Part shown: piece after piece, positions 6,522 to 30,941 of the stretch | How the letters are laid out: each line of letters opens with the position of its first letter | How positions within the stretch are numbered: the first letter of the stretch is position 1 | NCBI RefSeq assembly: GCF_008000775.2 | Contig: NZ_CP042905.2 | Coordinates: 1,890,001 to 1,922,000, forward strand | Direction of reading: 5' to 3' | DNA: 32,000 bases | Source: Promethearchaeum syntrophicum | Lineage (GTDB): Archaea; Asgardarchaeota; Lokiarchaeia; Sigyniarchaeales; Promethearchaeaceae | Program-made: the position numbers and the translations under genes | The notes under the pieces: model-generated | Told to the model about the DNA's origin: nothing | Seen by the model: the letters and a program-made list of their open reading frames with translations, nothing else | Database searches by the model: none

Positions 6522-6606
6522 ATCGAAGATTGATGCAATCAAAAAAATTGCTAACTAGAATATATTTTTATATTAATATCTTCATAAATTTATTAGGGAA
6601 TAGATT

Positions 6607-6855
6607 ATGTTAGGTAAGCAAACTCAGAAGATGATTTTTCCATATAAAACCGCTTATGATGAGCAGTGGGATGAAACTTGGGCGGCAGATTGGAAGAAAA
6701 TATCCGAGATATTCGATCTTATTGATGAATTGGAATCTACTTTCAATACATTAGAGGTTTCTGTCTTAAGAGAATTATCCCAAAAAAAATTAATAATTGA
6801 TCTTCAGAAATATGCCTATTCATTAAGTGTGTGGATTCAAAATAAATATAAATAA
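6607..6855 (+). CDS. Hypothetical small acidic/Trp-rich protein (82 aa)
   Basis: ORF with AGGGA 10 nt upstream of the ATG. No recognisable domain. Confidence 0.35.
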   Translation: MLGKQTQKMIFPYKTAYDEQWDETWAADWKKISEIFDLIDELESTFNTLEVSVLRELSQKKLIIDLQKYAYSLSVWIQNKYK

Positions 6856-6938
6856 ATTAAATCACTGGTTTTTATTTTAATCCTTTTTTGATCTCTTCTA
6901 CTTTTTTCGATCGAATTTATTAAAATTATTATCTTATT

Positions 6939-7775
6939 ATGTTCTTTTTTCCAAATATTTTAAGCAAGAAAAAACAATGTGAGTTTATGAGTGTACCTCC
7001 CGAATTACAAGATACTTTCATAGGTTTAATATATGAAAGTGGAATAATATTTTTGTTTTTAATACTACTTGTATTAATTATAATTCATTATAATAAGAAG
7101 AAAACATTGAACACTTTTCTTCTACTTGCCTCATTTACCTTTATGTTTTTGGCGATTGTTTTTTCCTGGTTATCTAAATTTCTGCTAATTCGGGAAATTG
7201 TCCCTGAATTTGTTGATATGGATCCTAATATGCCGATTTTTTGGATTTCTGCTTTAATTGTGCAATTTCGTATTAGTTTTGTGGTGATAGTTATTGCATC
7301 CGATATAACACATATTCTGAAGGTAAAAATATTTGATGATACACCTAATAAGGTAGAAAGATGGATATTAATAATTCTTTCATTATTTACAATCATTTTT
7401 GCAGTAACTGCAATGGAGCAAGGAAATGTTTTATTAGATGTTCTTGCCTTTTTATTTGTTTTAATAATTATGTGTTATGTCTATATTCCTTTTGTTGCTG
7501 CTTCTTTGAAAATGTATCGTATAATGAAAGAACCACATTATAAAAGAGCATCATTATCATTAGCAATTTTGGGTCTTTCTTTCATTATGGTGTTTATTGG
7601 ATTTTTAGCTGATAGATTAATGATATTGCTTACAGATAGCCTCGGTTATACTCCTTTCTATTTTGCCGCCTGGGGATTTGTTATTGTTGGAACTTTTGCA
7701 GCATATATGGGGTATATAAGGACATCCCGGCAAAAATCTCTAAAAGAAGAGAAACAAATCGAGCAAAAAGAGTAA
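6939..7775 (+). CDS. Seven-transmembrane-segment membrane protein, unknown function
   Basis: I count 7 hydrophobic segments of about 20-25 aa, followed by a charged C-terminal tail (RTSRQKSLKEEKQIEQKE). Confidence 0.5.
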   Translation: MFFFPNILSKKKQCEFMSVPPELQDTFIGLIYESGIIFLFLILLVLIIIHYNKKKTLNTFLLLASFTFMFLAIVFSWLSKFLLIREIVPEFVDMDPNMPIFWISALIVQFRISFVVIVIASDITHILKVKIFDDTPNKVERWILIILSLFTIIFAVTAMEQGNVLLDVLAFLFVLIIMCYVYIPFVAASLKMYRIMKEPHYKRASLSLAILGLSFIMVFIGFLADRLMILLTDSLGYTPFYFAAWGFVIVGTFAAYMGYIRTSRQKSLKEEKQIEQKE

Positions 7776-7792
7776 TCTCAACTCTTATTTTT

Positions 7793-9109
7793 TCATTTAT
7801 CTTTTAAAATTTTTGTAAGATCTGATCGTTCTGAAGGTTTTTTTCTAAATTTTGACCCGATTTTGACCATTATCCATTCAAAACTAAATTTATATTTGTG
7901 TTTTTCCCATTTTTTTAAAATTATCAACCACGATCCGAATACTATGATTAAAAATAGCAAATTCAAACCAAAATTCGTCATTACTACATCCTTTTCTCCC
8001 GAAAAACTTCCAAAAGCTGTATGGAAAATGAATGACCATAATGTGCACCAGAATGGCTCTAACATAAATAAAGTTAGTGAAAGAATTCCGAATCTTCTAA
8101 TTAATATTGTTTTTTCTGCAATTTTTGCGTGTTTCTCATCCGAGCAATAGTCTATTTTTTCAAAAAACCATGGAAACCAAAGCATCATTATACCCAAATT
8201 TAAAAGATATAAATCAGGGGGAATCATTTTATATTTAAAGAAAAATGACATCAAATTACCTTCAACGGTAAAAATATGATATATAGCAAGTATTATACTT
8301 ATAATTATTAACGAAAATCCTACTTTTTTAGCGAAATTTTTTATTTCTTGAATGCTCTTCTGTTCTGCTAAATAAATCCCTAAAATTATCCCAAAAGCAA
8401 CATATCCGCCATACGGCAATAAGCAATGCATAGTCCCTGAAATAAAGGAAAGAAAAAGAGCAGGGATGTAATACAAACCCCCTTTATTTAAGAAGGAAAT
8501 AAAAATCGGATAAAGTAAATTCCATAATGGTTGCGAAACTGCTAGTATTATTGCTCCGAATTCAAGTATAATTTTAATACTACGCTTTGTGTTTTGGAAA
8601 CCTTGCTTTCTCCAAATTATCCAAAGAAGGAGACAGGTAAGATATCCACTTGCTGAAATCATCGCTAAAGCATCAGCTCTAAAGAATAATTCTATCGGGG
8701 GGAGACTAATTTGCTGTAACTCAATCGAACCAGTTATAAGTGAATGGTTAAATCCATTTCCAGTTAAAGATTCTGATACTCTATTAAATAATCCTAAGAA
8801 TATGAAATGTATAATTAAAACTAGAGTAGAATTTATGAAACATCCTTGTAATGCTACACCAATATCTTCCTTTTTTTTCATTCTGAGGTAAATTTGATAT
8901 GAATTTACAAGCCCTGTTATAAGTGCAAATATCCCTGCCCAAGTTCCGAAGATAAGAAGAGGCGCGAATATAACTAAAGGCGATTTGGGTAATAATGTTC
9001 GGGCGTTTTCTTCATTTAGCATTATTCCATAAGTAATAGCATGGTTTACTATAACCCCAATTATGGCTAAACCTCGAATAAAATCCAAAGATAAAATCCT
9101 TTTACCCAT
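7793..9109 (-). CDS. Polytopic membrane protein, DUF1624 / heparan-alpha-glucosaminide N-acetyltransferase-like (acyltransferase-3-like)
   Basis: The N-terminus RILSLDFIRGLAIIGVIVNH matches the R..lD..RG.a...m...H opening of that family. It has 10 or more hydrophobic segments. Confidence 0.5.
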   Translation of the reverse strand: MGKRILSLDFIRGLAIIGVIVNHAITYGIMLNEENARTLLPKSPLVIFAPLLIFGTWAGIFALITGLVNSYQIYLRMKKKEDIGVALQGCFINSTLVLIIHFIFLGLFNRVSESLTGNGFNHSLITGSIELQQISLPPIELFFRADALAMISASGYLTCLLLWIIWRKQGFQNTKRSIKIILEFGAIILAVSQPLWNLLYPIFISFLNKGGLYYIPALFLSFISGTMHCLLPYGGYVAFGIILGIYLAEQKSIQEIKNFAKKVGFSLIIISIILAIYHIFTVEGNLMSFFFKYKMIPPDLYLLNLGIMMLWFPWFFEKIDYCSDEKHAKIAEKTILIRRFGILSLTLFMLEPFWCTLWSFIFHTAFGSFSGEKDVVMTNFGLNLLFLIIVFGSWLIILKKWEKHKYKFSFEWIMVKIGSKFRKKPSERSDLTKILKDK

Positions 9110-9203: not shown

Positions 9204-12200
9204 TTAAATTCGTTTGAATTTAATTTGAATAGTCCCTATTGTGCCCTGACTAAGTTTTTTTTCGCAATAAGAACATTTTCCTTCTTGACCATCAAATATC
9301 TTTTGTACTGCCTTTTCCCTAATCATGGCAAAACATTTTCCATTGGTGCAGACATGAAATTCATGAAATATCCATTCATCTTCCTTCTCGATTTGTTGAT
9401 CGACAATTTCCAAAGGATACGCAGTTACTTTTTCAACAATTTTTGCTTTCGTATCTTTCAATGTGCCCAGTAAAAATGGATGTTCGGATGCAAGCTGTAG
9501 GTTTATTTCTTCTCCAGTTTGTAATTTATGTTGCTTGCGTAAAAATTGAATAGTTCGCAATAAATCCCGTAATATCCGTTCTTGTTGGAGTTTTTTAGAA
9601 TCTTTAATATCCAAGTAAATATTATACTCTGGTAATTCCGTTTCAATTATTTTACCTTTCCTTGGTTTCTCATCAACAATATAAATTTCCTTGACATTGC
9701 ACATTTCCTGAATAAGGTCCTTAAATAAGAGTTCTTTTTTCTCCTTTGGTAATAGGGATAGACTTTTAGTAGGCCATCTTAATTTAATCTTATGTTCTGA
9801 TTTTAGGGATCTAACTTCATCAATAATTTGACGAGCATCAAGCATTTGAGATTCTATTGCTTCATCTATGTATTTTTTTACAACTTTCGGCCATTTTTCT
9901 AAATGAACCGATGCTTTACTCTTTGTAATCATTTCATCTTTGAATAATTTCTGATAAATTTCTTCAGAGATCATTGGGTTAAGAGGTGCCATTAATAAAC
10001 ACAATTTGTAAAGGATATGCCATAGAACTGCTAAAGTGGTGTATTTCTCTTCATCTTCAGCATTCACATCAACTCTATCGCGAATAATAGTGATATACCA
10101 TCTTGATAAATCATTTAGAATATAATCTTGTAAACGGATTGGAATTGATGGCAATTCAAAAACATCATAGAGATCTGTCAATTCTTTTATTAATGAATAT
10201 GTTTTCGATAAAATCCATTTATCTACAGGAGAGAGTTCTTCATAAACGAATTTATGTTTCTTTGCATCAAATTTGTTTAGATTCATTTTTTCTTGAGCAA
10301 ATAAGAATGTATTCCAGAAAGTATTCAAGACTTTAAATGTATCTGTATATTCTTTGTAATCAAAATTAAAATCTCTCCCAGGTGGAACATTTCCAACGCA
10401 ATAAAATCTAAACGTTTCTATGCCCTTAATATTACTCCAGCGTCTGTCATCCTTGATATATTTCTTTTTTGCTGCTTTTCTAACTTTCTTTTTAGGATCT
10501 ATCTTTTTAGTTTTATCAAATTTTGAAATTGAAGCTAAAGTTGCGACTTTTCGCATTTCTTCTTTTTGTTTCTCTGTTAGGATCTCCACTTTACCTTCTA
10601 AAACATCTTGAGGTAATACCGCGTTTCCTATTGATTTAGACATCTTCATTCCATGTGAATGAACCCATCCATGCATAAAACATGCATTGTAATTTTTCCG
10701 TTTAGAAGAAAGCATAGCACTGGAAAGAAGTGAATTAAACCATCCTCTAATCTGATCTTTTCCTTCCAATATAAAATCCACAGGCTCCCAAGTATCATAA
10801 TGCTCATGCCCGTCAACAAATTGTTGAGATGCCCACATAACAGAACCACTATCAAGCCATACATCTGCTAAATCGGGAACTCTTTTCATTGTTCCTTTAT
10901 CGCATTTTGGACATTTCCAGGTCACTTCATTAATAATTGGGATATGAAGATCATCAGGGCAATCACCAGCTTTTTCTTTTAATTCCTCCATTGAGCCGAT
11001 TACATCTATTTCACCGCATTCTTCACTATCACAAACCCAAATTGAAAGCGGTATTCCCCATAATCTCTGACGTGAAATGCACCAATCTTGTAATGAATTT
11101 AACCATGATTTGAAGTTTGTAGAACCTGCTCTTTTTGGGATCCAAAGAATTTCTTCATTTGCCTTTAACATTTCATTTCTCAACGCGGAAGTTTTGAAAA
11201 ACCATTGCTTGGTTGCGCGATAAACTAGTTTGGTTTTACATCTCCAACAATGAGCATATTCGTGTTGAATTTTTTCTTCATGAATTAAAGTACCTTTTTC
11301 AATAAGCATATCCATTATTTCCCGATTTACTTCATGCACATATTTTCCTTCAAAAGTTTTCCCCGCTTCTTTAGTATAGCATCCATCCATTTCTACAGGA
11401 GAAAAAATAGGAATACCATTTGCTAAACCTACTTCAAAATCTTCAGGTCCATGGCCTGGAGCGCTGTGAACCAATCCAGAACCTCCTGTTTCTTGAACAT
11501 ATTCACGAGACATTAATATTGAATGAACTTTAGGTTCTTCTATTTCTAATTCTGCTTGATATGGGATTTCATCAGCCAATGGATGAATATATTTCTTTCC
11601 TTCTAACTGTGAACCTTGTATTCTCTCTCCATATTCAAATCCATCCTCTGTTTTTAAAGTTAAACCTAATTTATTCTGGAGTAAATCTGCAGTTGAAGCT
11701 ATCCCCATTATCCAATATTCGTCTTTAACGCGCATTTTAACATATTCTATATCAGGATTTGCCATTATATTTGTGTTTGACACAAGAGTCCATGGAGTTG
11801 TGGTCCAAATAACATAAAATGTTTTAGGATCTTCAACAGATCGAAATTTAACGAAAATTGCTGTGTCTTCTATATCGTAATATTCGAATTCATGTTTTGC
11901 TAAAGCTGTTCCACAACGTGGGCAACAATTCATAGGGCGAAACCCTTGATATAAATAGCCATTTTCCCACACTTTCTTTATGGTCCACCAAACGCCCTGA
12001 ATATATGTGTTTTTTAATGTGATATATGGATTATCCCAGTTCCAAAAATTACAGCCGAGTCTCTTAAATTGATCGTTCATTGGTTCGATTTTACTAATTG
12101 CATATTCTCTACACTCTTTAATGAATTTTTCTAAGCCATATTCCAAAATCTCTTTCTTATTTTTTATCCCCAACTTCTTTTCAATTTCAACTTCAATAGG

Positions 12201-12470
12201 TAATCCATGTGTATCATAACCGGGGGTGTCAATGACTCTAAATCCTCGCATTCTTTTATATTTAATAATCATGTCTTTTAGAATCTTGTTCCACGCAGTT
12301 CCAAGATGAACGTCCCCAGTAGTGTACGGTGGACCATCTAAATAGAAAAATTTCTTATTTTTTGCTTTGGGTTCAGCCTTTTTGATGAGATCATATGTTT
12401 TTTCCGTTTCCCACCATTTTATAATTCTTTCTTCGATTTCGTTTGAATCAAATTTTCCGAGTGTTTTCAT
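9204..12470 (-). CDS. ileS: Isoleucyl-tRNA synthetase, archaeal/eukaryotic type
   Basis: HIGH-type motif PPYTTGDVHLGTAWNK and KMSKS motif GMKMSKSIGN. Editing-domain TTTPWTL, Zn knuckles CPRCGTAL / CWRCKTKL, and a C-terminal Cys cluster. Length 1088 aa. Confidence 0.97.
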   Translation of the reverse strand: MKTLGKFDSNEIEERIIKWWETEKTYDLIKKAEPKAKNKKFFYLDGPPYTTGDVHLGTAWNKILKDMIIKYKRMRGFRVIDTPGYDTHGLPIEVEIEKKLGIKNKKEILEYGLEKFIKECREYAISKIEPMNDQFKRLGCNFWNWDNPYITLKNTYIQGVWWTIKKVWENGYLYQGFRPMNCCPRCGTALAKHEFEYYDIEDTAIFVKFRSVEDPKTFYVIWTTTPWTLVSNTNIMANPDIEYVKMRVKDEYWIMGIASTADLLQNKLGLTLKTEDGFEYGERIQGSQLEGKKYIHPLADEIPYQAELEIEEPKVHSILMSREYVQETGGSGLVHSAPGHGPEDFEVGLANGIPIFSPVEMDGCYTKEAGKTFEGKYVHEVNREIMDMLIEKGTLIHEEKIQHEYAHCWRCKTKLVYRATKQWFFKTSALRNEMLKANEEILWIPKRAGSTNFKSWLNSLQDWCISRQRLWGIPLSIWVCDSEECGEIDVIGSMEELKEKAGDCPDDLHIPIINEVTWKCPKCDKGTMKRVPDLADVWLDSGSVMWASQQFVDGHEHYDTWEPVDFILEGKDQIRGWFNSLLSSAMLSSKRKNYNACFMHGWVHSHGMKMSKSIGNAVLPQDVLEGKVEILTEKQKEEMRKVATLASISKFDKTKKIDPKKKVRKAAKKKYIKDDRRWSNIKGIETFRFYCVGNVPPGRDFNFDYKEYTDTFKVLNTFWNTFLFAQEKMNLNKFDAKKHKFVYEELSPVDKWILSKTYSLIKELTDLYDVFELPSIPIRLQDYILNDLSRWYITIIRDRVDVNAEDEEKYTTLAVLWHILYKLCLLMAPLNPMISEEIYQKLFKDEMITKSKASVHLEKWPKVVKKYIDEAIESQMLDARQIIDEVRSLKSEHKIKLRWPTKSLSLLPKEKKELLFKDLIQEMCNVKEIYIVDEKPRKGKIIETELPEYNIYLDIKDSKKLQQERILRDLLRTIQFLRKQHKLQTGEEINLQLASEHPFLLGTLKDTKAKIVEKVTAYPLEIVDQQIEKEDEWIFHEFHVCTNGKCFAMIREKAVQKIFDGQEGKCSYCEKKLSQGTIGTIQIKFKRI

Positions 12471-12612
12471 TTAACTTAACCTTAACCCTTAGTTTTCGCT
12501 AAACAAAAAAAGAAATCATGTTTAAAAAAATTTAGGAGAAATAGAATAATTAGGAGAAAAATAAAAAAAGAAATTGTAATTGAAAAAAAGAATAAAAATA
12601 TGATGTTAAAAA

Positions 12613-12825
12613 TTATTTGGAGCCAATCAAGGCATTCATTTGTCTTTCTTTTAAAACTTTGAATTGATCATGTTCAATTTCTTTCACAAGATTAGCTTCT
12701 TTTGTCAAAAATTGATTTAAAGCTTGGCGAACTGCTTCAGAACGGCTTGGGAAATATCCTAAATCAACTAATGTTTTTAAGCAGTCAAGGTATTGTTCCG
12801 GTATATTAATAGTAACGATTTTTAT
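12613..12825 (-). CDS. Unannotated ribbon-helix-helix (CopG/Arc/MetJ-type) DNA-binding protein, about 70 aa, apparently with a non-canonical ATA start
   Basis: My translation of the minus strand: (ATA)KIVTINIPEQYLDCLKTLVDLGYFPSRSEAVRQALNQFLTKEANLVKEIEHDQFKVLKERQMNALIGSK*. The beta-strand plus helix-helix pattern with FPSRSEAVRQAL is classic RHH. An in-frame TAG lies 6 codons upstream of the ATA. There is no ATG/GTG/TTG before the RHH strand. GAGGGG sits 6 nt upstream of the ATA. Confidence 0.55.
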   Translation of the reverse strand: MKIVTINIPEQYLDCLKTLVDLGYFPSRSEAVRQALNQFLTKEANLVKEIEHDQFKVLKERQMNALIGSK

Positions 12826-12903
12826 TTTGTTCCCCTCTTTTTTCTAAAAAATTTTGATTTTACTGATGGTTTGTTTGAAGATAATAATTTGTTAACACTT
12901 TCT

Positions 12904-13021
12904 TTTTGTCGGCATTATTTTTAAAGAAATCTTATTCACATTCAATATACAGATGTTAAGCCCTTAACTTCCTATTTTGTCGGCATTATTTTTATTGCAT
13001 TCTTATTCATATTCACTATAC
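12904..13021. repeat. Two copies of a 47-bp imperfect direct repeat (12904..12950 and 12975..13021, period 71 bp) flanking a 14-bp palindrome (12955..12968)
   Basis: Hand alignment gives 41/47 identical, including an exact 20-mer ttttgtcggcattattttta. The palindrome is gttaag cc cttaac. The repeat lies in the divergent spacer between the RHH gene and nreA. Confidence 0.8.
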
Positions 13022-15266: not shown

Positions 15267-15803
15267 ATGAAACTTGTTAAGGAACCTAATAGTATCATCA
15301 AATTACTAAACTCAAGCAATGAAGATGAGAAAACTTTAGGATACAAGTCATTTTTAAGTCGAACACACTGGTTTTCTGCTCAAACTCCTGAAGCATTAAA
15401 AATTTTTGCATGTAATCAATTAAATGTAAATCCTCGATATGTTTTAGCTACAGGTTTTAAAAAAATAGAGCCGGCCTTTTTATATGCAAGTCAAGACTCG
15501 TTGGAAAATAAAAAACTCAAAATGGTTTCAGCAGCCTATGATTATGTTAAAAGTATCAATGAAGAGATCCCCCCCATCATTGTGTGGAATTTTTTTGATT
15601 CGCAGAAAATTAGATTTATTGTTCACGATGGCCATCATAGAGCATTTTTCGCTTATCGTTATCATAGAAAAGTAAAGGCAGTTATACTCGAACCATTAGG
15701 GAATTATCACCAAATGGAAGAAAAGTTTAATTACGCGTTTCAAATTCAAAAAAGGGTAATAGATTTACCCGTTACTCGTCAAAAAGCAGATATGGTGAAT
15801 TAA
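15267..15803 (+). CDS. ParB/sulfiredoxin-fold (ParBc-like) protein, paralog A
   Basis: EIPPIIVW-x12-FIVHDGHHRAFFAYRYHRKVKAVILE matches the ParB N-terminal/Srx pattern (strand, DGxHR, helix, hPAhV strand). No HTH is evident. Confidence 0.6.
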   Translation: MKLVKEPNSIIKLLNSSNEDEKTLGYKSFLSRTHWFSAQTPEALKIFACNQLNVNPRYVLATGFKKIEPAFLYASQDSLENKKLKMVSAAYDYVKSINEEIPPIIVWNFFDSQKIRFIVHDGHHRAFFAYRYHRKVKAVILEPLGNYHQMEEKFNYAFQIQKRVIDLPVTRQKADMVN

Positions 15804-16403
15804 ATGGTAAATTCAGAGATTAAATGGGAATTTATAGATGTTGATGAATTTACAATCAAGCATCTTCAAGATTTCAATGTAAAAGATTTAACCAGGATGT
15901 TTTTGAGAGTAGAAGATCCAATGGTTCCTGAATTAGCTTATCTCGCATTTTTGTTAAAAAGCAAATGGGGAGTTACATTTGATATTGAGCGAGGTATAAG
16001 AAGAACATTAATGCAACTTAGATTACCTCTATTTGAAGGAAAAGGATTAAGCTGGAAGGAAAGAAAAATGAATCCCGCTAAAATTTGGGCTTCTGAAGAT
16101 TCCTTGGATTTTGAAAAGTTCCAAATGGTAAAAGTAGCCCTCGAATATATGATAAAAAATCATAAACCAATCCCCCCGGTAGTAGTTTGGCTCATAAAAA
16201 CAGAGTCTAGATATAACCTCGTATGCCATGATGGACATCATCGTATTCATGTAGCTAATGAATTAAAAATGCCGATTCCCGCGATTGTTCTTGAATATTG
16301 GATTGATAATCGAGAGATTCCTATTTTACCTCAAAAAATACCATATCGGAAAATTAATAGTTATGTAATTGATTTACCCATAGAAAAATTCGTTCCAATC
16401 TAA
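15804..16403 (+). CDS. ParB/sulfiredoxin-fold (ParBc-like) protein, paralog B
   Basis: PIPPVVVW-x12-LVCHDGHHRIHVANELKMPIPAIVLE. It is clearly homologous to the upstream ORF (ASEDSLDFEKFQMVKVALEYM vs ASQDSLENKKLKMVSAAYDYV). Its ATG directly follows the upstream TAA, with GGTGA 5 nt upstream. Confidence 0.6.
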   Translation: MVNSEIKWEFIDVDEFTIKHLQDFNVKDLTRMFLRVEDPMVPELAYLAFLLKSKWGVTFDIERGIRRTLMQLRLPLFEGKGLSWKERKMNPAKIWASEDSLDFEKFQMVKVALEYMIKNHKPIPPVVVWLIKTESRYNLVCHDGHHRIHVANELKMPIPAIVLEYWIDNREIPILPQKIPYRKINSYVIDLPIEKFVPI

Positions 16404-16472: not shown

Positions 16473-17234
16473 ATGAATTTTGAAGAAAAATATGAATTTG
16501 CTAAAGAAAAATTCAAAACCTTTAGAAATTATATCGAAATATCTGATTTTAGACAATTTATGTTATTAATTTTAAATATCGAAGGAGACGGTGCCGAGGC
16601 CATAATGCGACAATTAGGTATGGGTTCTAAAACCAAGACACTATTGCCATATGATCCTTTCAAGAAAGCGTATTATACCAAAGTGATATCAAGTCTTTCT
16701 ATGAAAAATCAATTAAAAATATACATAAAATCAGAGAAAATTAATGAATCTCTGCTGAATAAATCAGATTCTAAGATTTTTACAGAAAATTTAAGTGAAT
16801 ATGAACGAAAAAACCTTCTTCCTAACAAATTTGCTTTGATTACTCCATCAGTAGTAGATACTTTGTATGAAAATCCTGAAAAAATTGAAAAAAAGGAAAT
16901 TATTCCGGTTATCGAATCCTTATATGAAGATTTAGCAGAATTTATTGCTAGTCAAAATTTAAAATATATTTTTATTTTGGAAGATGATACTGCAGATATT
17001 TTATTTACTGTAAATATGTCGTATGCTCCTGATACTAATTCTTCAAATCTGATCCAGTTCTTTGATGTTTTTATTGATGAAGAAAAGAAGATTCGAAATC
17101 ATACATTTATTAGAATGAAAAAGGATGAGATAGATATGGAATTTATGAATGAAATTAAAGAATATAGTCATTCTGACATTTTTAAATCACATTTCACCAT
17201 TATTGTTAAAATTAAATCATTCGATTTATTATAA
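16473..17234 (+). CDS. Hypothetical protein (253 aa), last gene of the co-directional nreA-parB-like cluster
   Basis: ORF only. No motif recognised. Confidence 0.4.
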   Translation: MNFEEKYEFAKEKFKTFRNYIEISDFRQFMLLILNIEGDGAEAIMRQLGMGSKTKTLLPYDPFKKAYYTKVISSLSMKNQLKIYIKSEKINESLLNKSDSKIFTENLSEYERKNLLPNKFALITPSVVDTLYENPEKIEKKEIIPVIESLYEDLAEFIASQNLKYIFILEDDTADILFTVNMSYAPDTNSSNLIQFFDVFIDEEKKIRNHTFIRMKKDEIDMEFMNEIKEYSHSDIFKSHFTIIVKIKSFDLL

Positions 17235-17275: not shown

Positions 17276-18367
17276 TTAGGTTATCGTAATATAACCTTTA
17301 TCTTTAAATTCTTCAAGAATATCTGGAACTAAATTATAATCAAATTCCAAAGTTCGTTCATAAGCTCTTTTTTCTAAATGATTAATTATTCCTGCCATAG
17401 AAACAACAGTTTCGCCCCTGATTATTTGGAGAACGTGTTTTTTAATGTCAGTATCTTGGTTTTCTGCCGTCCGCACATGGATTGCTGAATTATAGAAGTA
17501 TAAATGATCGATTTTTGGTTTTTCTGCTTTAGCTTCTGCTTTGGTTTCAGATTTGGCTTCTGGTTCTTTCCACAAATCTTTTCTTAAGTGCATAACTTCT
17601 ATCCACCGAAAAGAAAACAGGTTTTCTTGGTCTGGATATTTTTTTTTCATTATTTTCTGAAAGTTTTTGTCATCGGTATTCATGCTCTCAAATTCATCTG
17701 TAAATTTCAGAATATAATCAATTGTATTTTTGGCATATATCAAGCTTAATTTTGAATCTTTTTCTCTTAACGAGTCTAAAACTTCTTGAAAAGCTTCAGA
17801 ACTACTATCACCAAATGGTTTTTGAACACTAATTTTATATAAAACATTAAAAATAGAGTAATTCTTTAATTTTTCACTTTGTTTATCATTAAATTCAAGA
17901 TAACTTGGTGGATTCATTATTATACACGTTTCAGGCATTTTTGGAAAAAACCATGCAAGTGCATTAAAAAGTACCCCAAATCTTTCTGAATCTAAATCAT
18001 CTTCGATAAAAAGAATTGGACTCTCAACAAAACAAGATAATAATAATGATCGAAAATCTCGTTCATTAATGAAATTTAAAAGATTTTTTAAAGAAATATC
18101 AAAAGTTTCTTTTTTCTTAAGTAGAAAATTGAGTTTTGATTTAATTTTTAATGCTTCTGCTTTTAACGAGTATTCTAATACTAAATAATCTCTAACTTTA
18201 AAGTTCTTATCGATATATGCGTAAAATTCATGAGGGCAGACGAGATCTCGCGGAATGTAAACAGATGTTGCACCAGAATCCTTTTCTGTAATAACAGCTG
18301 TAGGTACAGGGATTCTTCCTGATTTTGAACAAACTGGACAAACGACCATTATTCTTTTTTCGCTCAT
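17276..18367 (-). CDS. Zn-ribbon protein with central DENN/folliculin-like alpha/beta core (tentative) and C-terminal winged-helix-like domain
   Basis: IMVVCPVC-x30-CPH at the N-terminus. Residues 105-157 read FRSLLLSCFVESPILFIEDDLDSERFGVLFNALAWFFPKMPETCIIMNPPSYL. The C-terminus reads HVLQIIRGETVVSMAGIINHLEK...FKDKGYITIT. Domain calls are by eye only. Confidence 0.5.
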   Translation of the reverse strand: MSEKRIMVVCPVCSKSGRIPVPTAVITEKDSGATSVYIPRDLVCPHEFYAYIDKNFKVRDYLVLEYSLKAEALKIKSKLNFLLKKKETFDISLKNLLNFINERDFRSLLLSCFVESPILFIEDDLDSERFGVLFNALAWFFPKMPETCIIMNPPSYLEFNDKQSEKLKNYSIFNVLYKISVQKPFGDSSSEAFQEVLDSLREKDSKLSLIYAKNTIDYILKFTDEFESMNTDDKNFQKIMKKKYPDQENLFSFRWIEVMHLRKDLWKEPEAKSETKAEAKAEKPKIDHLYFYNSAIHVRTAENQDTDIKKHVLQIIRGETVVSMAGIINHLEKRAYERTLEFDYNLVPDILEEFKDKGYITIT

Positions 18368-18504
18368 AGCTTATCGCTTTTTTTGTATCTATATTAAATT
18401 GGGAAAAGATGTTATATTTAAAATTGATCTAACTAACGAATGATCTGTTTAATATCTAAGTATTACATATTTCAGAAAATACAGAAAAGTAAAAAAAAAT
18501 AGAT

Positions 18505-19923
18505 TTAATTAAAGCTTGCGTTTGCATGTTGTTCTTTGAGATATTCAACAATTCCATCTTGAACTTTTTTAAATTCTTCGAGAACTCCTGTAAAAGGTTT
18601 TTGAGTAACATCTTCAAGCCAGCCATTAAGTTTTTTGAGAATTCTTTCTTGTAAATCCAGATTTCCTTCAATTAAAAGAGAAATATAATAATTTCCTAAT
18701 TTGGAGAATAAAATAAAGCGATAATGTTGAAAACCGAGCTTAACTGAAATCCAATTTGGCATCATTTGAGTATTTGCAACAGTATTTGCTGCCATTGCTT
18801 CAACTTTCGCCGTAATTAATGCTTCTGCCATTTCTTGTTGATTAAAATCGGAACTACTATCATTATCCGGATCAATGGGTGGTAATCCTTCGATTTCCAA
18901 TTCGTTAGTAATTATTTTTGATATTACCCCGATCGATTGATAACTTAAGCCAAAATAATCTACTCTTAGAAAATTGTCTAAAGATTTTAATTTTCGTTCT
19001 GTAAATACATCTTGGAGTTTAATATATTCATTTAAAATGAATTTAACACGTGATGGGAAATTTTGCTTTACGTTATATAAATCGAGTTTTGATAAATTTT
19101 TAACATCTTTTCCTCTCAGAATTTCTTTAATAAGCGTTTTCATATTGTTTAATAACCAAGCGGCTTTCATATCAGGAAAATTACCATAAATGACATATAA
19201 AAAATCCCTATCACTTAAGAAATAGCAAATCTCTTCATACCCTCCATTATCAAGGGGAGATAGCATCATCCGATCAAGTTCACCACTTAATATTGAAGTA
19301 GCAATATAGTCCAGGTTCGATCCTAATTCAAGGAAATATTTGAGTTTCTCATTAGAATAATATATTTCTGTTCTTTCCTTGGTGATTATACCCATAAATT
19401 TTAGATATTCATCTTTTTTTCCCAGTTCAATTTTAGTATTAGATAAATTGATTTCTTTTCGTTCTTTCAACTTTACTTTAATTCTCGTATCAGAATCTGA
19501 AGCTGAATCTTTGGAAATATGCATATCTGTAACCTCGTTATCTTCGGCTAATTTTTCGATTTTTTCCGAGATAACAATATCGGGATTAGATTGAATTTTT
19601 AGATTTTTAGAAAAATCATCAGGATTTAACTCAATTTTTCCTTTATCTGATTGATCAAGCGTTTTAAAAATGGGTTTATTCTCAAAAACCTTTTTCTCTT
19701 CTTCTTTTCGTTTTAATTGCCCTTTAATGATTTCACCATTAAAGATCTTGTTCTCAACATTCTCTGATTTTTCTCTATTTAGCATTCTTCTAGTTTTTTT
19801 CTTTGGAACTTCGACACCTGGAATTCTTTCATTACATTTTGGACAATTTACTGGGAAAGGCGCAACTAAAAGATATCCACATTGAGAGCATTTTTTTTTT
19901 TCCAAAGAATCATTAAAGAACAT
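18505..19923 (-). CDS. Zn-ribbon protein with K/E-rich linker and two longin/roadblock-like modules (tentative)
   Basis: CSQC-x11-CPKC at the N-terminus. Later segments GGYEEICYFLSDRDFLYVIYGNFPDMKAAWLLNNMKTLIKEIL and HYRFILFSKLGNYYISLLIEGNLDLQERILKKLNGWL look longin/roadblock-like by eye. Confidence 0.5.
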   Translation of the reverse strand: MFFNDSLEKKKCSQCGYLLVAPFPVNCPKCNERIPGVEVPKKKTRRMLNREKSENVENKIFNGEIIKGQLKRKEEEKKVFENKPIFKTLDQSDKGKIELNPDDFSKNLKIQSNPDIVISEKIEKLAEDNEVTDMHISKDSASDSDTRIKVKLKERKEINLSNTKIELGKKDEYLKFMGIITKERTEIYYSNEKLKYFLELGSNLDYIATSILSGELDRMMLSPLDNGGYEEICYFLSDRDFLYVIYGNFPDMKAAWLLNNMKTLIKEILRGKDVKNLSKLDLYNVKQNFPSRVKFILNEYIKLQDVFTERKLKSLDNFLRVDYFGLSYQSIGVISKIITNELEIEGLPPIDPDNDSSSDFNQQEMAEALITAKVEAMAANTVANTQMMPNWISVKLGFQHYRFILFSKLGNYYISLLIEGNLDLQERILKKLNGWLEDVTQKPFTGVLEEFKKVQDGIVEYLKEQHANASFN

Positions 19924-20035: not shown

Positions 20036-21361
20036 TCAATCTTGATTTAGAATTTCTTTCATATGATTTATTCGTCTGTCTAATACTTTTTGTGATCCAA
20101 TATCAGTTCTGTGGAAAAGAGCTCCTTGAATAAAAGAAGTTCCCTTTTCTGCAATTTTTTCTGCTTCGTCAAGGGTGTCTGCAATTCCAAGTACTGCTAT
20201 CGCTCTAGATGTAGATGTAAATATTTTTCCTTCTTCCTCACTCACTGATGCAAAATATAAATTTGCTCCTAATTTTTTTATCTCTGTTTCATTGATTTTT
20301 ATTTCAGAATGTGCAATTGGTTTAACTGGATATCCTTCTGGAACCAAATATTTACACACAGTGGCTTTTTTCTCGAATTCTAAAGGACTTCTTAAATTTC
20401 CATCTAAGATTTGTTGGCAAACTGTTACAAAATTACTCTTCATTATTGGTAAAACGTTCATTGCTTCTGGATCCCCAAATCTTATATTAAATTCAACAAT
20501 TTTCAGCCCCTTCTTTGTCTTCATGAATTGTCCATACAGAAAACCCTTAAACTGAGTTCCTGTTTCTTCAGCTACAGCATCTATAACTTGTTTCATTTGA
20601 TTATTTGCATATTTTATATCTTCACTTGAAATAAATGGCAATAAATGATTTTGCATAGAATATGAACCCATTCCGCCTGTATTCGGGCCTTTATCTCCAT
20701 TGAATGCGCGTTTATTATCTTGAACGATAGGTGTTCCGACTACATTGATTCCATCAACAAAACATATATATGTAAATTCTTCCCCGTTAAGTTTTTCCTC
20801 AATGATAATTCGTCCGTTATTATTTAAGATTTCCTTACAATAATCCATTATATCTTGCTCGCTTTGTAAGTGGTCTCCCCAAACTTTTACCCCTTTTCCA
20901 CCAGTTAATCCATCAGGTTTAATTACTACGTTTTTCATACCAATTTCGTTAATAAATTCTGGGATCCCAGTAATTTCGGAGAAATTTTTAAAAATTATGT
21001 TCGATTCAATCTTATATTTCTGTAATAGAGATCTGGTAAAAATCTTCGAACTTTCAAGTTGTGCACATTCAATTGTAGGTCCAACTGTAGGAATATCGTG
21101 AGCTTGGAGTGCATTTGTTAGTCCCATTGCCAAAGGTGCTTCTGGTCCTGCTACTGCAAAATTAACTTCGTTTTTTTTCCCAAAATTTGCTATATCTTGA
21201 AAATTATCTAAATTTCCAATTTTTACATTATGATTACAGAGTTTGGCAATTCCAGGGTTCATCTTAGCCATATAGGCAGTTAAAGTTGCTCCACCTCTTA
21301 CAAGAGCTTCTCCTAATGCATGTTCTCTTGCGCCGTTTCCAATTAGCAAAACATTTACCAT
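20036..21361 (-). CDS. purD: Phosphoribosylamine--glycine ligase (GAR synthetase)
   Basis: MVNVLLIGNGAREHALGEAL N-terminus, an ATP-grasp core (VVIKPDGLTGGKGV, EEKLNGEEF), and the C-terminal GPNTGGMGSY ... FNIRFGDPE motifs. The ORF track starts at TTG 21376; ATG 21361 gives the canonical N-terminus. Confidence 0.93.
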   Translation of the reverse strand: MVNVLLIGNGAREHALGEALVRGGATLTAYMAKMNPGIAKLCNHNVKIGNLDNFQDIANFGKKNEVNFAVAGPEAPLAMGLTNALQAHDIPTVGPTIECAQLESSKIFTRSLLQKYKIESNIIFKNFSEITGIPEFINEIGMKNVVIKPDGLTGGKGVKVWGDHLQSEQDIMDYCKEILNNNGRIIIEEKLNGEEFTYICFVDGINVVGTPIVQDNKRAFNGDKGPNTGGMGSYSMQNHLLPFISSEDIKYANNQMKQVIDAVAEETGTQFKGFLYGQFMKTKKGLKIVEFNIRFGDPEAMNVLPIMKSNFVTVCQQILDGNLRSPLEFEKKATVCKYLVPEGYPVKPIAHSEIKINETEIKKLGANLYFASVSEEEGKIFTSTSRAIAVLGIADTLDEAEKIAEKGTSFIQGALFHRTDIGSQKVLDRRINHMKEILNQD

Positions 21362-21433
21362 AGTTCTAATCAACAAATAAAATAAGGTTTGAATTTTTAA
21401 AAACTTGAAATGTTATATGTTTAATAATTAAAT

Positions 21434-22345: not shown

Positions 22346-23422
22346 ATGCCATTCTTCGGTCATTTTGTCATTGCTATGTGTATTATTATCCCCATTTACT
22401 ATTTTAATAAGGAAAAATTCAATTATAAGATCGCCGTGATATTTGTTTTAAATAATTGGATCGGTCCAGATACCGCTCAAGCTTATTTTTTTTTACCTAT
22501 AGATTTTCATTATCTTATTCCCTATCTTTTTTGGGCTCTTCCCATGGCTTTTTTCTATTCTTATATCTCTAGATTTTCCATCAAATTTGAAAATCATAAA
22601 TTTCAAATTATTGATGATAAACAAAAAGTTTTGAATTGGCGTAATGCGTACCTATTAATGATATCAGGTGGAATTTTGCACACGGTATCAGATACAATAT
22701 TCAGATCTAATCTAAAGTTTAAATTCATTGAAAATATTTTTGAGCCAAGATTACCCGAGATTCAAAATTATGGAATGGGGTTTGGTCTTGATTTTGGAGC
22801 AGTTCATTTATTGGGATATTTATTTCTAATTTTTATCTCCTTTCTCATATTTTTCTTCTTTAATCGAAATTTAAAGGATATGATTCTTTTTTACACTAGC
22901 TATATTATCATTGTTCTAGTTTCTATCCTTCTTCTGGGGGATGATTTAGCTGGTGAAGAATTTGATATAGGAGTAATATTTTTCGCATTGATTTTTATTT
23001 TCATCCCGCTATTTTTGCTATTTTATGTAGCCAATAGCGTGTTTAAACAAGATCCTGAAAGCTTGAAAACGAAAATTTTATCTGAAAAGCAGATTAAAAG
23101 AGGATTATTACTCGTATCAATATTCACTTTACTTATATCAGGGGTTCTTCTTATATGGGGAATTTTCTGTTTTACAAGTCCAGAAATTTTTGAAGAATTT
23201 TTCAAAATAAATGAAAATGGAGTTATATTTCTAGGAATTTTTGTCTTGATACTGACGATTTGCGCTCTATATGGAGGAATAGGGTTGCTCCTTAAACAGA
23301 AATCCGCTCGAATAATGACAGCATTAATGATGTCATTTTTATTGGTGTTTATATATCCTTTATTTGCAGTTTTCTATCTATACCAAGATGATGTGAAATC
23401 TTTTTATGAAAAAAATATTTAG
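22346..23422 (+). CDS. Polytopic membrane protein; the N-terminal part is possibly a DUF457/YdjM-like membrane-bound metal-dependent hydrolase
   Basis: MPFFGHFVIAM opening and GGILHTVSDTIF (H...D) resemble the YdjM family. The C-terminal half adds further TM segments. Weak, by-eye call. Confidence 0.4.
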   Translation: MPFFGHFVIAMCIIIPIYYFNKEKFNYKIAVIFVLNNWIGPDTAQAYFFLPIDFHYLIPYLFWALPMAFFYSYISRFSIKFENHKFQIIDDKQKVLNWRNAYLLMISGGILHTVSDTIFRSNLKFKFIENIFEPRLPEIQNYGMGFGLDFGAVHLLGYLFLIFISFLIFFFFNRNLKDMILFYTSYIIIVLVSILLLGDDLAGEEFDIGVIFFALIFIFIPLFLLFYVANSVFKQDPESLKTKILSEKQIKRGLLLVSIFTLLISGVLLIWGIFCFTSPEIFEEFFKINENGVIFLGIFVLILTICALYGGIGLLLKQKSARIMTALMMSFLLVFIYPLFAVFYLYQDDVKSFYEKNI

Positions 23423-24739: not shown

Positions 24740-25072
24740 ATGGATGATTATGTAAAAATAGGAATTATTTTTGTTATTTTAGCGTTTGTTTTTCTGATGA
24801 CTTATCGGAAAACTAAATTAAAATATAAATTACTCTCTATTTATCTATTAGTTCTATTTATGGATTTAATGGTGGCAATGATTATTCCTTCTCCATATGA
24901 GTGGATTACATTTTTAATTTTTATCATTTTAATGTTTTTAATCCTCTTCAACAAGTTTACTTTAGATATTATCAACAATAATGTTGATCTGATCTATGCT
25001 GATAAAGAACCGCAAATCTGGGATGATTTCGATACGCCCCCTGAATTGAATATTCAAAATAATGGCAAATAA
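24740..25072 (+). CDS. Small membrane protein (110 aa, about 3 TM)
   Basis: ORF with hydrophobic segments, 18 bp upstream of the next membrane gene. Confidence 0.4.
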   Translation: MDDYVKIGIIFVILAFVFLMTYRKTKLKYKLLSIYLLVLFMDLMVAMIIPSPYEWITFLIFIILMFLILFNKFTLDIINNNVDLIYADKEPQIWDDFDTPPELNIQNNGK

Positions 25073-25090
25073 AAAAAAAGATGATGTAAA

Positions 25091-26587
25091 ATGGTAAATA
25101 ATCTCTTGACTTTGGTTCCTTTCCTAATAGTATTTGTAATGGCGATAATTTTAATTGGGTCTCCATTGAAAATAAAAACTAAATCTATGTTAGCTTTTTG
25201 TAGTCTGTTTTTAGCATTAATTTTTATTTTTATCTTGCTCAACTTTATAATAATCGAACGACGACAGACAATTTATTCAAATCTGCAAAATATTCAACTC
25301 TATTTAGAATTTTCTAAGTCACATTTCTCATATTTGATTCAAGGTGTTACATTATGTATCTCTCTTGTAATTTATTTTAGATTTCACCAAAGAATACGTC
25401 AAATCCATTCAAAGGAATTTTTTATCAGTTTTTATTTAATATTTACTGGATCAATAATGGGACTTTTTGTATCTGAAAATCTATTAGTAATTTCTTCATT
25501 TTTTATACTCGCTTCCATTTCTTTAGAATTTCTAATTTATTTTGATACAATTGAAAAAAGGATATCAAAATTCAACCTTATTCTAATCTCAATATTCTCT
25601 GGAATCTTAGTTTTAACCAATATTTATGTCCAAATTACTTTTAGATCATTAGATCTAAATATTTTAATTCAAGAGGTAAGTAACAGTTCCATTTTTACAC
25701 AAATAATTATTTTCCTCGGTTATTTCTTTGGGATTGGAGGTTTGTGTATATTATTTCCGCTCTCCAATCTTAAGTTACAAAATATTTACAGGAAATCAAA
25801 TCCGATTCATCTATTCTTGATGAGTTCTATATTTATTCCGACAGTTAGCTTAATATTAATGAAGATTTCATTGATATTTTCATTTAATAATCATGCCATC
25901 GCCCATATTTTTTTTGTAATGGGGTGTATTGGAATTAGTTTTTCTAGTATTCAATTAATTATTGAAATTTTTGGTTTAAACAGATCATCCAATCAATCAA
26001 TCAAGAATTTTATTGGGCTCTTATCTGCAATTGAATTCAATATATTTTTAATGTTTGGAGGTTTGGTTCGACTTCCAATTATAATCGATGATATTCTATA
26101 TATTCATAGATCAATTACCATTTTCTTCATTTTATCAGTGATCACAAAATCAATTTTAATTGAAATTCTTCAACCAAAAGAAAGTATAGATTCAAAAATT
26201 GAATGGAATTTTGAAAGTCTAAGAGGAAAATTTTACCATAAGATTTTTTTTGCCCTTATAATGTTAGTTATTCCTTTATTTTATGCTTTTCCAGGATTTT
26301 TAGGTTTTGATTTCTTTTTACTTCTTTTTGATTCAATTAATTTTGAAACGCCTTATTCATCACTATATTTTGCAGAATTTTGGGTTATAATAATTCTGAT
26401 TATATTTTTCGAATGTATCCTAATGATTTTAATAAGTAATGTAATTTTCAAAACCTATTTTCAGAAATCAAATCAAGTTGAAGGAACTACTCAGAAAATA
26501 ATGAAGTTTAAAAAAATTACATTTGTTATACCAGTTATTTTGATAATTTACAATTTGATTGCGATCATTTTAAATATGGGTTTATAA
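25091..26587 (+). CDS. Polytopic membrane protein (about 14 TM), possibly a highly divergent NuoL/M/N-MrpA/D antiporter-like subunit
   Basis: By eye, ENLLVISSFFILASISLEFLIYF resembles the D/N-LL..F...E..S...Y.L block. GIGGLCILFPLSNLKLQNIYRKSNPIHLFLMSSIFI resembles G..GKSAQFPLH.WLPDA...PTPVSALIHAATMV, but several canonical charged residues are replaced. Confidence 0.4.
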   Translation: MVNNLLTLVPFLIVFVMAIILIGSPLKIKTKSMLAFCSLFLALIFIFILLNFIIIERRQTIYSNLQNIQLYLEFSKSHFSYLIQGVTLCISLVIYFRFHQRIRQIHSKEFFISFYLIFTGSIMGLFVSENLLVISSFFILASISLEFLIYFDTIEKRISKFNLILISIFSGILVLTNIYVQITFRSLDLNILIQEVSNSSIFTQIIIFLGYFFGIGGLCILFPLSNLKLQNIYRKSNPIHLFLMSSIFIPTVSLILMKISLIFSFNNHAIAHIFFVMGCIGISFSSIQLIIEIFGLNRSSNQSIKNFIGLLSAIEFNIFLMFGGLVRLPIIIDDILYIHRSITIFFILSVITKSILIEILQPKESIDSKIEWNFESLRGKFYHKIFFALIMLVIPLFYAFPGFLGFDFFLLLFDSINFETPYSSLYFAEFWVIIILIIFFECILMILISNVIFKTYFQKSNQVEGTTQKIMKFKKITFVIPVILIIYNLIAIILNMGL

Positions 26588-30428: not shown

Positions 30429-30941
30429 CTAATTTGCGTGACATTGGATGGAGTTAATAAAATTCAATATTGCTTCTTTATAATAATCAAATGCATTTGC
30501 TAAACAATTTGCATGAATATGGAACAACCTTTGAGTTAGTTCACAAAAGAAGGTTGCATGAATAACTTTTGATACAAAATATCGTCTTCTATTCATCTGC
30601 TGCCTGTTTCCGTACCAGATTGTCATTTCATGGGATAAATGCCATAGACTTTTCTCTATCTTAGATGTTGTGACATTAATCAAAGCATAATTTTGAATAG
30701 ACTCGTTAACTATCTTCCCAAGGTGAAAATGACTGGCTTCTAACTTTTTCCATTCAATTGTAATATCTGAATCAGCTCCCCACACATCATCTGAAATTTG
30801 AACGGATTTAAATTCGATTCTACCCTCGTCAAGATTTCCCTCCTTTTTAATAAATTTTTTATCACTTGAATAGATATTTGAAATTTTATTAATTACAATC
30901 TGGTTTTCTATATTTAGATATTTCCAATTCTTTTGGAGCAT
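30429..30941 (-). CDS. Hypothetical protein (170 aa)
   Basis: ORF only. His/Trp-rich, with no motif recognised. Confidence 0.4.
   Translation of the reverse strand: MLQKNWKYLNIENQIVINKISNIYSSDKKFIKKEGNLDEGRIEFKSVQISDDVWGADSDITIEWKKLEASHFHLGKIVNESIQNYALINVTTSKIEKSLWHLSHEMTIWYGNRQQMNRRRYFVSKVIHATFFCELTQRLFHIHANCLANAFDYYKEAILNFINSIQCHAN

Follow-up and report, generated by a model that had tools for sequence, protein, structure and literature searches.

A conserved pair of lokiarchaeal genes with predicted longin and DENN-like folds as a candidate small-GTPase regulator

In eukaryotes, the longin fold serves as a dimeric platform that binds Rab, Arf and Rag GTPases in Mon1-Ccz1, Fuzzy-Inturned, BLOC-3, TRAPP, FLCN-FNIP and GATOR1, and the DENN-like fold is found in the DENND1 Rab guanine nucleotide exchange factors (GEFs) as well as in the C-terminal halves of folliculin and SMCR8/C9orf72. 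The subunits of FLCN-FNIP and C9orf72-SMCR8 pair longin-to-longin and DENN-to-DENN. Longin and DENN modules are core eukaryotic machinery for switching Rab, Arf and Rag GTPases on membranes, and their origin is central to eukaryogenesis. Here we describe two adjacent genes, named gene A and gene B, from Promethearchaeum syntrophicum MK-D1, the first Asgard (Loki) archaeon to be brought into culture, whose products are predicted to adopt longin and DENN-like folds, respectively. The analyzed region is a stretch of 32,000 nucleotides (contig NZ_CP042905.2, positions 1,890,001 to 1,922,000), referred to as the window; coordinates are window positions unless another contig is named.

The central DENN domain has been defined as an alpha/beta three-layer sandwich with a five-stranded sheet, followed by the all-helical dDENN (PMC3521125), and heterodimers of the FLCN/SMCR8 type carry a catalytic arginine finger and a GP motif in one longin domain (PMC12290439). 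Liu et al. (2020/2021; bioRxiv 10.1101/2020.10.19.343400) described Asgard DENN-domain proteins, an operon combining a LAMTOR1-like roadblock, a Rab-like GTPase and a DENN protein, and expanded families of DENN paralogues in Loki, Hel and Heimdall; FLCN/SMCR8-type longins have been described in Asgard archaea (PMC12290439), and both archaea and bacteria have been noted to possess the DENN fold (PMC13392464). The initial annotation of the locus, made from sequence, regarded a longin-plus-DENN pair as a notable eukaryote-like signature. The signature is real but not new, since DENN and longin domains in Asgard archaea were already known (reported 2020-21); what sets this pair apart is its unusual architecture. 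The Asgard DENN proteins of Liu et al. come from the same phylum and share the fold classes and the inferred GTPase-regulator role, whereas their operon contains a GTPase and a LAMTOR1-like protein; at the A-B locus there is no GTPase gene, and the DENN-like protein is partnered instead by a di-longin protein bearing a Zn ribbon. Our literature search found no paper naming DSAG12_02292, DSAG12_02293 or their accessions, the asCOG tables of Liu et al. being outside its reach, and no paper linking tri-longin GEFs to Asgard archaea.

The two genes lie on the same strand, with gene A upstream and gene B downstream:
18505..19923, minus strand: gene A (DSAG12_02293), an open reading frame (ORF) of 472 amino acids, stop codon within the coordinates
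18368..18504, minus strand: A-B spacer of 137 bp, sequence read directly
17276..18367, minus strand: gene B (DSAG12_02292), an ORF of 363 amino acids, stop codon within the coordinates

Both are listed as 'hypothetical protein' in NCBI and UniProt. The product of gene A has accessions QEE16463.1, WP_147663340.1 and A0A5B9DCI0, and the gene B ORF is 100% identical to the database entry DSAG12_02292. GenBank versions of the A product differ in length, with 472 residues in QEE16463.1 and 466 in QEE16463.2 (the length also of WP_147663340.1/UniRef). Homologues of A begin with M-[FLV]-F-[NGK], which favors the 472-residue start at 19923 (window 19906-19923).

We lean toward the reading that A and B are a two-protein small-GTPase regulator of an Asgard type, or two cooperating components of one, acting as a GEF or as a GTPase-activating protein (GAP). 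In this scheme, A would supply two longin domains and B a DENN-like alpha/beta-plus-helical module; the acidic winged helix of B and a conserved island within the A linker would be the likeliest protein-protein docking elements, and the client GTPase would be encoded elsewhere in the MK-D1 genome. The evidence comprises the ORFs and their conservation, the conserved Zn ligands, the adjacency of the genes and the predicted folds with their nearest solved structures; from it we infer the binding of A to B, the action on a GTPase and a mode that would be either GEF or GAP.

Searching a collection of 5.8 billion proteins returned 32 homologues of B and 72 of A, at 35-93% identity, and all named sources are Promethearchaeota/Lokiarchaeia. 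Family alignments were made from 23 B-family and 43 A-family sequences. The A family takes two forms, a long one of ~415-480 residues with a K/E-rich linker and a short one of ~320-415 residues (full-length sequences) that lacks it. The Cys knuckles that had been noted at the start of each protein, CSQC-x11-CPKC in A and CPVC-x30-CPH in B, were confirmed along with the gene coordinates and spacing. C10, C13, C44 and H46 of B are each at least 90% conserved, as are C27 and C30 of A, and therefore these are not chance cysteines. Conserved arginines include R184, R320 and R402 of A and the invariant R59 of B. The alignments show that both A and B are under strong purifying selection as proteins.

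AlphaFold2 (AF2) models of the two proteins were compared with 350,542 PDB chains using Foldseek. The model of A has a mean predicted local distance difference test score (pLDDT) of 75.7, rising to ~90 in the folded part, and can be divided into the following features:
19828..19899, minus strand: four-Cys Zn ribbon (C12, C15, C27, C30), residues 9-32, from the AF2 model and conservation
19429..19818, minus strand: K/E-rich, mostly disordered linker, residues 36-165, from AF2 pLDDT and the alignment
19573..19614, minus strand: linker island F-x-K-x-L-K-I-Q-x-N-P-D-I-V, residues 104-117, from conservation
19009..19416, minus strand: first longin-topology domain, residues 170-305, from AF2 secondary structure and Foldseek
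18511..18975, minus strand: second longin-topology domain, residues 317-471, from AF2 secondary structure and Foldseek

The first domain has strands 173-181 and 186-189, helix 196-212, strands 215-223, 231-238 and 241-248, and helices 251-268 and 279-305; the second has strands 319-328 and 331-337, helix 357-385, strands 387-397, 400-409 and 412-420, and helices 422-436 and 449-471. The longin order beta-beta-alpha-beta-beta-beta-alpha-alpha is found twice in this predicted structure, over residues 173-305 and 319-471, with pLDDT of 81-94 in most 10-residue blocks of the two domains and 65-70 in the loop 341-360. MglB/roadblock GTPase platforms have a five-stranded alpha/beta core in common with longins; the A domains, opening with beta-beta and closing with two helices, follow the order of longins and not that of roadblocks. 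When aligned with each other using hhalign, the two domains give no signal, so that an internal duplication is unsupported by sequence.

The Foldseek results for A point the same way. Ranks 1-15 are exclusively subunits of tri-longin Rab GEFs (330-380 alignment columns, E 7e-7 to 1e-3), the best being Fuzzy/Inturned (7q3e and 9rs9; E 7e-7 to 6e-4), BLOC-3 (8zwc) and Mon1-Ccz1 (8c7g, 7qla and 9l0d). Next come single longins with target template modeling (TM) scores of 0.45-0.71: AP-1 sigma (9ddt_B; target TM 0.71, root-mean-square deviation (rmsd) 3.6 Å), SRX (2fh5), VAMP7 (4b93), zeta-COP and sedlin. The roadblock subunits of Ragulator come lower in the list than the longins (5yk3_H, target TM 0.40). 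Two segments of A that had been singled out by eye as longin- or roadblock-like correspond to the last two strands and the next helix of each predicted longin module; the longin half of that description stands at the level of predicted structure, but it has no profile support, and roadblocks are the poorer match. Tri-longin Rab GEFs (Mon1-Ccz1, Fuzzy-Inturned and the HPS1-HPS4 complex BLOC-3) resemble A in being multi-longin polypeptides, and they work as heterodimers. They differ in having three longins, compared with two plus a Zn ribbon and a 130-residue disordered linker in A, and in having a second tri-longin subunit as partner where A has the DENN-like B as its conserved neighbor.

Outside the longin domains, the Zn knuckles of A (C12-S-Q-C15, 11 residues, C27-P-K-C30) are flanked by two short strands with pLDDT ~80, and sub-threshold Pfam Zn-ribbon matches recur in 17-25 of the 43 family members. 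The K/E-rich linker seen initially is real: residues 41-152 mostly have pLDDT <50 (segments 41-65, 79-99, 117-146 and 148-152). According to the alignment, it is confined to the long A subfamily, the one paired with B, and is missing from short-type A. The island at 104-117 is kept across the linker-bearing long-type sequences, the rest of the linker being unconserved; two A sequences of at least 415 residues without the linker (P0080 and P0093) are also without the island. The island is a candidate short docking motif.

The model of B has a mean pLDDT of 80.7, and the folded domains of the two models reach 85-94. Four parts can be distinguished:
18170..18358, minus strand: five-stranded CCCH Zn-beta module, residues 4-66, from AF2 and conservation
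17810..18070, minus strand: alpha/beta core like the central DENN domain, residues 100-186, from AF2 and Foldseek
17573..17809, minus strand: helical bundle in the d-DENN position, residues 187-265, from AF2 and Foldseek
17279..17503, minus strand: acidic C-terminal winged-helix domain, residues 289-363, from AF2 and a weak helix-turn-helix (HTH) match

The core is composed of helix 102-113, strand 118-121, helix 128-140, strand 149-151, helix 153-167 and strands 171-174 and 179-182; it is followed by bundle helices 187-202, 206-229, 233-243, 245-251 and 253-265, and a disordered linker separates the bundle from the winged helix. For this protein, Foldseek ranks 1-9 are exclusively DENN-module proteins. 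The best are DENND1B-Rab35 (3tw8; E 5e-4 and 9e-4) and DENND1A (6ekk; E 4e-3); folliculin (6nzd_H and 3v42; E 0.04, rmsd 5.7 Å, and for 3v42 a target-normalized TM of 0.49 over 206 columns) and chains of the C9orf72-SMCR8 complex (6lt0_B and 7o2w_B) are also in this group, and DENND10 appears at rank 18. The next fold class is isocitrate dehydrogenases, with probability <0.15. The structural check proposed at the outset thus returned DENN-module proteins for B and tri-longin and longin proteins for A, and the best fold matches of both are GTPase regulators with probability 0.96-1.0.

Compared with eukaryotic DENN-module proteins (the Rab35 GEFs DENND1A/B, folliculin, SMCR8, C9orf72 and DENND10), B is alike over residues ~100-265, where an alpha/beta sandwich is predicted to precede a helical bundle. 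It differs in that profile-level similarity is nil, in that its N-terminal partner is a CCCH Zn-beta module rather than a demonstrated longin/uDENN, and in having an extra C-terminal winged helix and four core strands by DSSP. Residues 105-157 of B (nt 17897..18055) had been read by eye as a core-DENN pattern. They form helix-strand-helix-strand at the start of the predicted core and lie within the DENN matches from Foldseek, but no profile match there is significant. With folliculin 361-414 the motif is co-linear (FRxL helix, hydrophobic strand, aromatic/Leu-Pro, strand-Pro-x-x-Tyr), the shared stretch being FRxL ... ILFIE/VIWKS ... FFP/MLP ... CIIMNPPSY/VRIIPYSSQY. The by-eye motif is thus real but statistically weightless on its own.

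Several observations weigh against a GTPase-regulator pair, and those concerning the folds are considered first. The fold evidence comes wholly from AF2 models, and from neither solved structures nor sequence profiles. No Pfam match to DENN, uDENN, dDENN, Folliculin, Longin or Robl_LC7 was found at E<=5 in the 23 B-family and 43 A-family members, so the profile check suggested initially gave a negative answer; at the same threshold, Folliculin_C and relatives are unmatched in every B-family member, and among curated profiles the A-family members match Zn-ribbon families only, with no longin or roadblock profile. For the two MK-D1 proteins themselves, Pfam returns no match to B and sub-threshold Zn ribbons only to A. 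Searches of PDB sequences with three family profiles find no DENN or longin, only Zn ribbons and a weak HTH, and the A family profile finds nothing past the Zn ribbon. The C-terminal (DENN) sequence of human folliculin was verified against PDB 3v42 and 6ulg before being compared with B-family profiles in hhalign, and the resulting E-values of 0.19 and 0.22 are non-significant. Global TM-scores against multi-domain targets are low for both proteins (0.16-0.32), and the B core has four DSSP strands, compared with five in a canonical DENN domain.

Such results could arise if the DENN and longin resemblance were an artefact of structure prediction or a convergence of small alpha/beta folds, A and B then being unrelated lineage-specific families. 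The nil support at the sequence level, the shallow alignments used for prediction (23 and 43 sequences) and the global TM-scores of at most 0.32 are all compatible with this explanation. We nonetheless regard it as very improbable: the nine best matches of B and the fifteen best of A each belong to one functional class out of the 350,542 chains, pLDDT is 85-94 over the folded domains, and longin and DENN domains have been documented independently in Asgard archaea. Moreover, the best local stretches from hhalign, although non-significant, pair B 92-161 with FLCN 348-414 and B 214-248 with FLCN 513-547, and so are co-linear with the structural correspondence.

The initial annotation drew an analogy between the pair and FLCN-FNIP or C9orf72-SMCR8. 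The likeness holds insofar as A and B are adjacent, co-conserved genes that jointly give predicted longin and DENN-like folds, but the architecture differs. Each subunit of the eukaryotic complexes has a longin plus a DENN domain; here A is longin-longin without DENN, and B is Zn-beta/DENN-like/winged helix without a canonical longin. The best-supported reading is that A and B would work like the eukaryotic longin/DENN regulators, yet by the tests run they belong to none of those families, because they fail all of the sequence-profile tests and differ from the FLCN-FNIP/C9orf72-SMCR8 and tri-longin architectures. A bolder version would make A+B a heterodimer of an architecture absent from eukaryotes, sister or precursor to FLCN-FNIP, C9orf72-SMCR8 and the tri-longin GEFs, with the Zn-beta module (D53, R59) as a new GTPase-interacting or catalytic element and the purD/hisGDC placement reflecting a nutrient-linked role like that of Rag/FLCN/GATOR; we consider this quite unlikely. 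The locus is in any case a concrete, conserved two-gene candidate that was overlooked by sequence-based annotation. Because the two cultured Lokiarchaeia, P. syntrophicum MK-D1 and L. ossiferum, both have the pair, direct tests for partner GTPases, for Zn binding and for GEF/GAP activity are feasible.

The N-terminus of B, a strand-plus-CxxC segment, had been likened to that of folliculin. In the AF2 model, residues 1-84 are arranged as beta-beta-(one helical turn)-beta-beta-beta-alpha with a CCCH Zn site, the ligands C10, C13, C44 and H46 (IMVVC10-P-V-C13, 30 residues, C44-P-H46) being located at two hairpin tips and the helix at 68-84 coming next. The module has the signature CPxC ... CxH ... 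[FY]x[AIF][FY][IV]D..[FG].[IV]R[GD]Y, in which D53 and R59 are invariant; these two are no more than candidates for functional residues. In Pfam the module has no curated family, and the hints to the CpXC and Brz-type Zn beta-ribbons, although recurring, stay below threshold.

The B-family profile was also searched against 1.84 billion cluster representatives, with 575 proteins found at E<=1e-3 and only 17 at E<=1e-30. When the top 148 representatives were split by domain profiles, 85 had the Zn-beta module without the rest of B and 56 combined it with the DENN-like region, typically in ~280 residues total; a winged helix was present in only five, and four contained tandem Zn-beta copies. One DENN-like relative has FeoA at its C-terminus in place of the winged helix. 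In P0220 (651 residues; contig L010 7001-8956), the Zn-beta module sits between Arf-like and Ras/Roc-like GTPase domains, and elsewhere it is fused to PARP catalytic, PAS and Ig-like domains. Further Zn-beta proteins with PARP, PAS or Ig-like contexts or tandem copies are P0175, P0191, P0157, P0224, P0122 and P0125. We do not claim a roadblock nature for the region around the insert in P0220, for which Robl_LC7 gives only E 0.21.

The occurrence of the module alone, in tandem and in varied fusions therefore leaves the resemblance to the folliculin N-terminus unsupported as such: the B N-terminus is an autonomous, mobile CCCH Zn-beta module and is not supported as a folliculin-like longin. In hhalign, the A longin domains give no signal against the B N-terminus or core, and a longin nature of the N-terminus is unsupported by sequence. 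Its fusion to GTPase domains ties the module independently to GTPase biology, and in hundreds of uncultured relatives this uncharacterized unit is found together with DENN-like and GTPase domains. The ~280-residue Zn-beta/DENN-like family (within the 575 representatives at E<=1e-3) is perhaps identical to one of the expanded paralogue families of Liu et al. The idea that these ~280-residue proteins are preceded by a small longin gene was rejected; in the two contexts concerned, the neighbors are a membrane protein and an unrelated small protein.

The C-terminal winged helix of B, which had also been noticed initially, is borne out by the AF2 model and by a weak PDB profile match to the Lrp/AsnC-type HTH of PF0864 (2ia0, E 0.012, residues 307-354). 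It occurs in the B-type subfamily of ~345-390 residues, most members of which are paired with A. Its mean net charge is -1.5, and in 19 of 22 members the final 35 residues carry a net negative charge; this apparently acidic surface argues for a protein-binding over a DNA-binding role.

A winged helix also raises the possibility that B is a transcription regulator with a ligand-sensing alpha/beta domain and A a longin/GAF/PAS-like sensor, the two controlling purine or histidine genes with no GTPase involved. Besides the Lrp/AsnC-family match, this would agree with the positions of A-family genes beside purD or 3' of hisG-hisD-hisC in several lineages, and with the presence of PAS-GAF sensors among the lower-ranked Foldseek matches of A (probability <0.25). 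We think it very unlikely, as the acidity of the winged helix extends to the would-be recognition helix region (negative in 19 of 22) and would be atypical of a DNA-binding domain, GTPase regulators and not sensors make up the best fold matches, and the Zn-beta module is fused to GTPase domains in other proteins.

Linkage of the two genes is further evidence for a GTPase-regulator pair. The 13 loci compared were the window, two L. ossiferum isolates, Harpocratesius repetitus, three other Promethearchaeum species and several metagenome-assembled genomes. An A-family ORF is directly upstream of the B-type gene, on the same strand, in 12 of the 13 loci across Lokiarchaeia, so the co-conservation that had been proposed as a check is indeed found. 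In the other intact loci A and B are separated by 83-363 bp, and in one frameshifted assembly by 452 bp. The flanks vary, with extra genes between purD and A in some genomes (IDI plus polyprenyl synthase, or a PEP-utilizing enzyme) and different genes after B. Linker-bearing A and winged-helix B co-occur, and it is these two elements, linker and winged helix, that distinguish the paired forms.

The spacer in the window contains the following elements:
18491..18499, minus strand: T9 run, 5 nt past the A stop codon
~18414..18424 and 18390..18398, minus strand: AT-rich TATA-like boxes, read by eye

The second box is 23-31 nt upstream of the B ATG. Read by eye, the T9 run would be an archaeal terminator and the boxes a separate promoter, so that B may be transcribed from a promoter of its own.

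The remaining points against a cooperating pair are genomic. With 83-363 bp between them, and a T-run and TATA-like boxes in this interval, A and B could be transcribed separately; short-type A genes have no adjoining B, and one divergent B-type lineage (L004) has no adjoining A. The ~280-residue paralogue-like proteins examined have no longin or GTPase neighbor. The pair also lies within a conserved housekeeping synteny (purD, Nre, PfkB), and adjacency alone is therefore weaker evidence than it appears.

A and B could alternatively be neighbors by inherited synteny only, with B just another of the numerous Zn-beta/DENN-like paralogues, A an independent longin scaffold, other partners for each and no complex. 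This would fit the conserved block, which L. ossiferum and Harpocratesius also have (with purD upstream, and with Nre and ParB-CE-like genes downstream), the spacer that is never short, the short-type A genes without B and the B-type gene without A, and the unrelated neighbors of the ~280-residue proteins. We judge it unlikely, since adjacency persists where the flanks change, whether by insertion of IDI and polyprenyl synthase or of the PEP-utilizing enzyme or by different genes past B, and since two lineage-specific additions, the A linker with its island and the B winged helix, appear together in the paired forms.

The divergent B homologue of contig L004 (P0032, positions 7968-9038) has 356 residues when read from a GTG start. 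A B type without CxxC, which P0032 seemed to represent, was rejected; the called start is too far downstream, and reading from the GTG at L004:7968 recovers the Zn knuckle RCPSCG.

Neither a Pfam scan of ORFs of at least 100 residues nor a search for P-loop motifs in all six-frame ORFs of 80 residues or more revealed a small-GTPase gene in the window, in agreement with the caveat attached to the initial annotation. Gene-neighborhood conservation with Rag/Arf-like GTPases, which that annotation proposed to test, is not seen: no GTPase gene is conserved beside the pair, which also counts against a GTPase-regulator role, and one is present at 2.4 kb in a single species only. MK-D1 has 74 small-GTPase-related proteins, with genes generally outside operons with roadblock or longin genes (PMC10933270), and for this reason the lack of a GTPase gene near the pair is expected.

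Three independent contigs (L005 2352-7107, L006 2098-6798 and L007 1-1750) have a short-type A gene following hisG-hisD-hisC at its 3' end and on its strand, and hisB is close by in L007 and L009; long-type A adjoins purD (window 20036-21376). The recurrent link of a longin gene to histidine or purine biosynthesis may be plain synteny or may reflect a nutrient-related role. In contig L009, the A and Nre genes (6168-6970 and 11770-12968) are each broken into short ORFs, which looks like assembly frameshift errors rather than pseudogenes.

Convergent to B, on the plus strand, are three genes at 15267-15803, 15804-16403 and 16473-17234: two tandem paralogues (sub-threshold ParB-CE) and a 253-residue gene with no family. 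In L. ossiferum (L001) and in Harpocratesius (L008), genes of matching sizes fill the same place, from B to Nre. The window contains no tRNA genes or Rfam families. Within 5856-9109, 22346-23422, 24740-26587 and 30429-30941, ORFs of 221, 278, 438, 358, 110, 498 and 170 residues are without a Pfam family, and L. ossiferum (L001 935-2754) has counterparts of equal size to two of them, the 110- and 498-residue ORFs that lie upstream of phosphoglucomutase.

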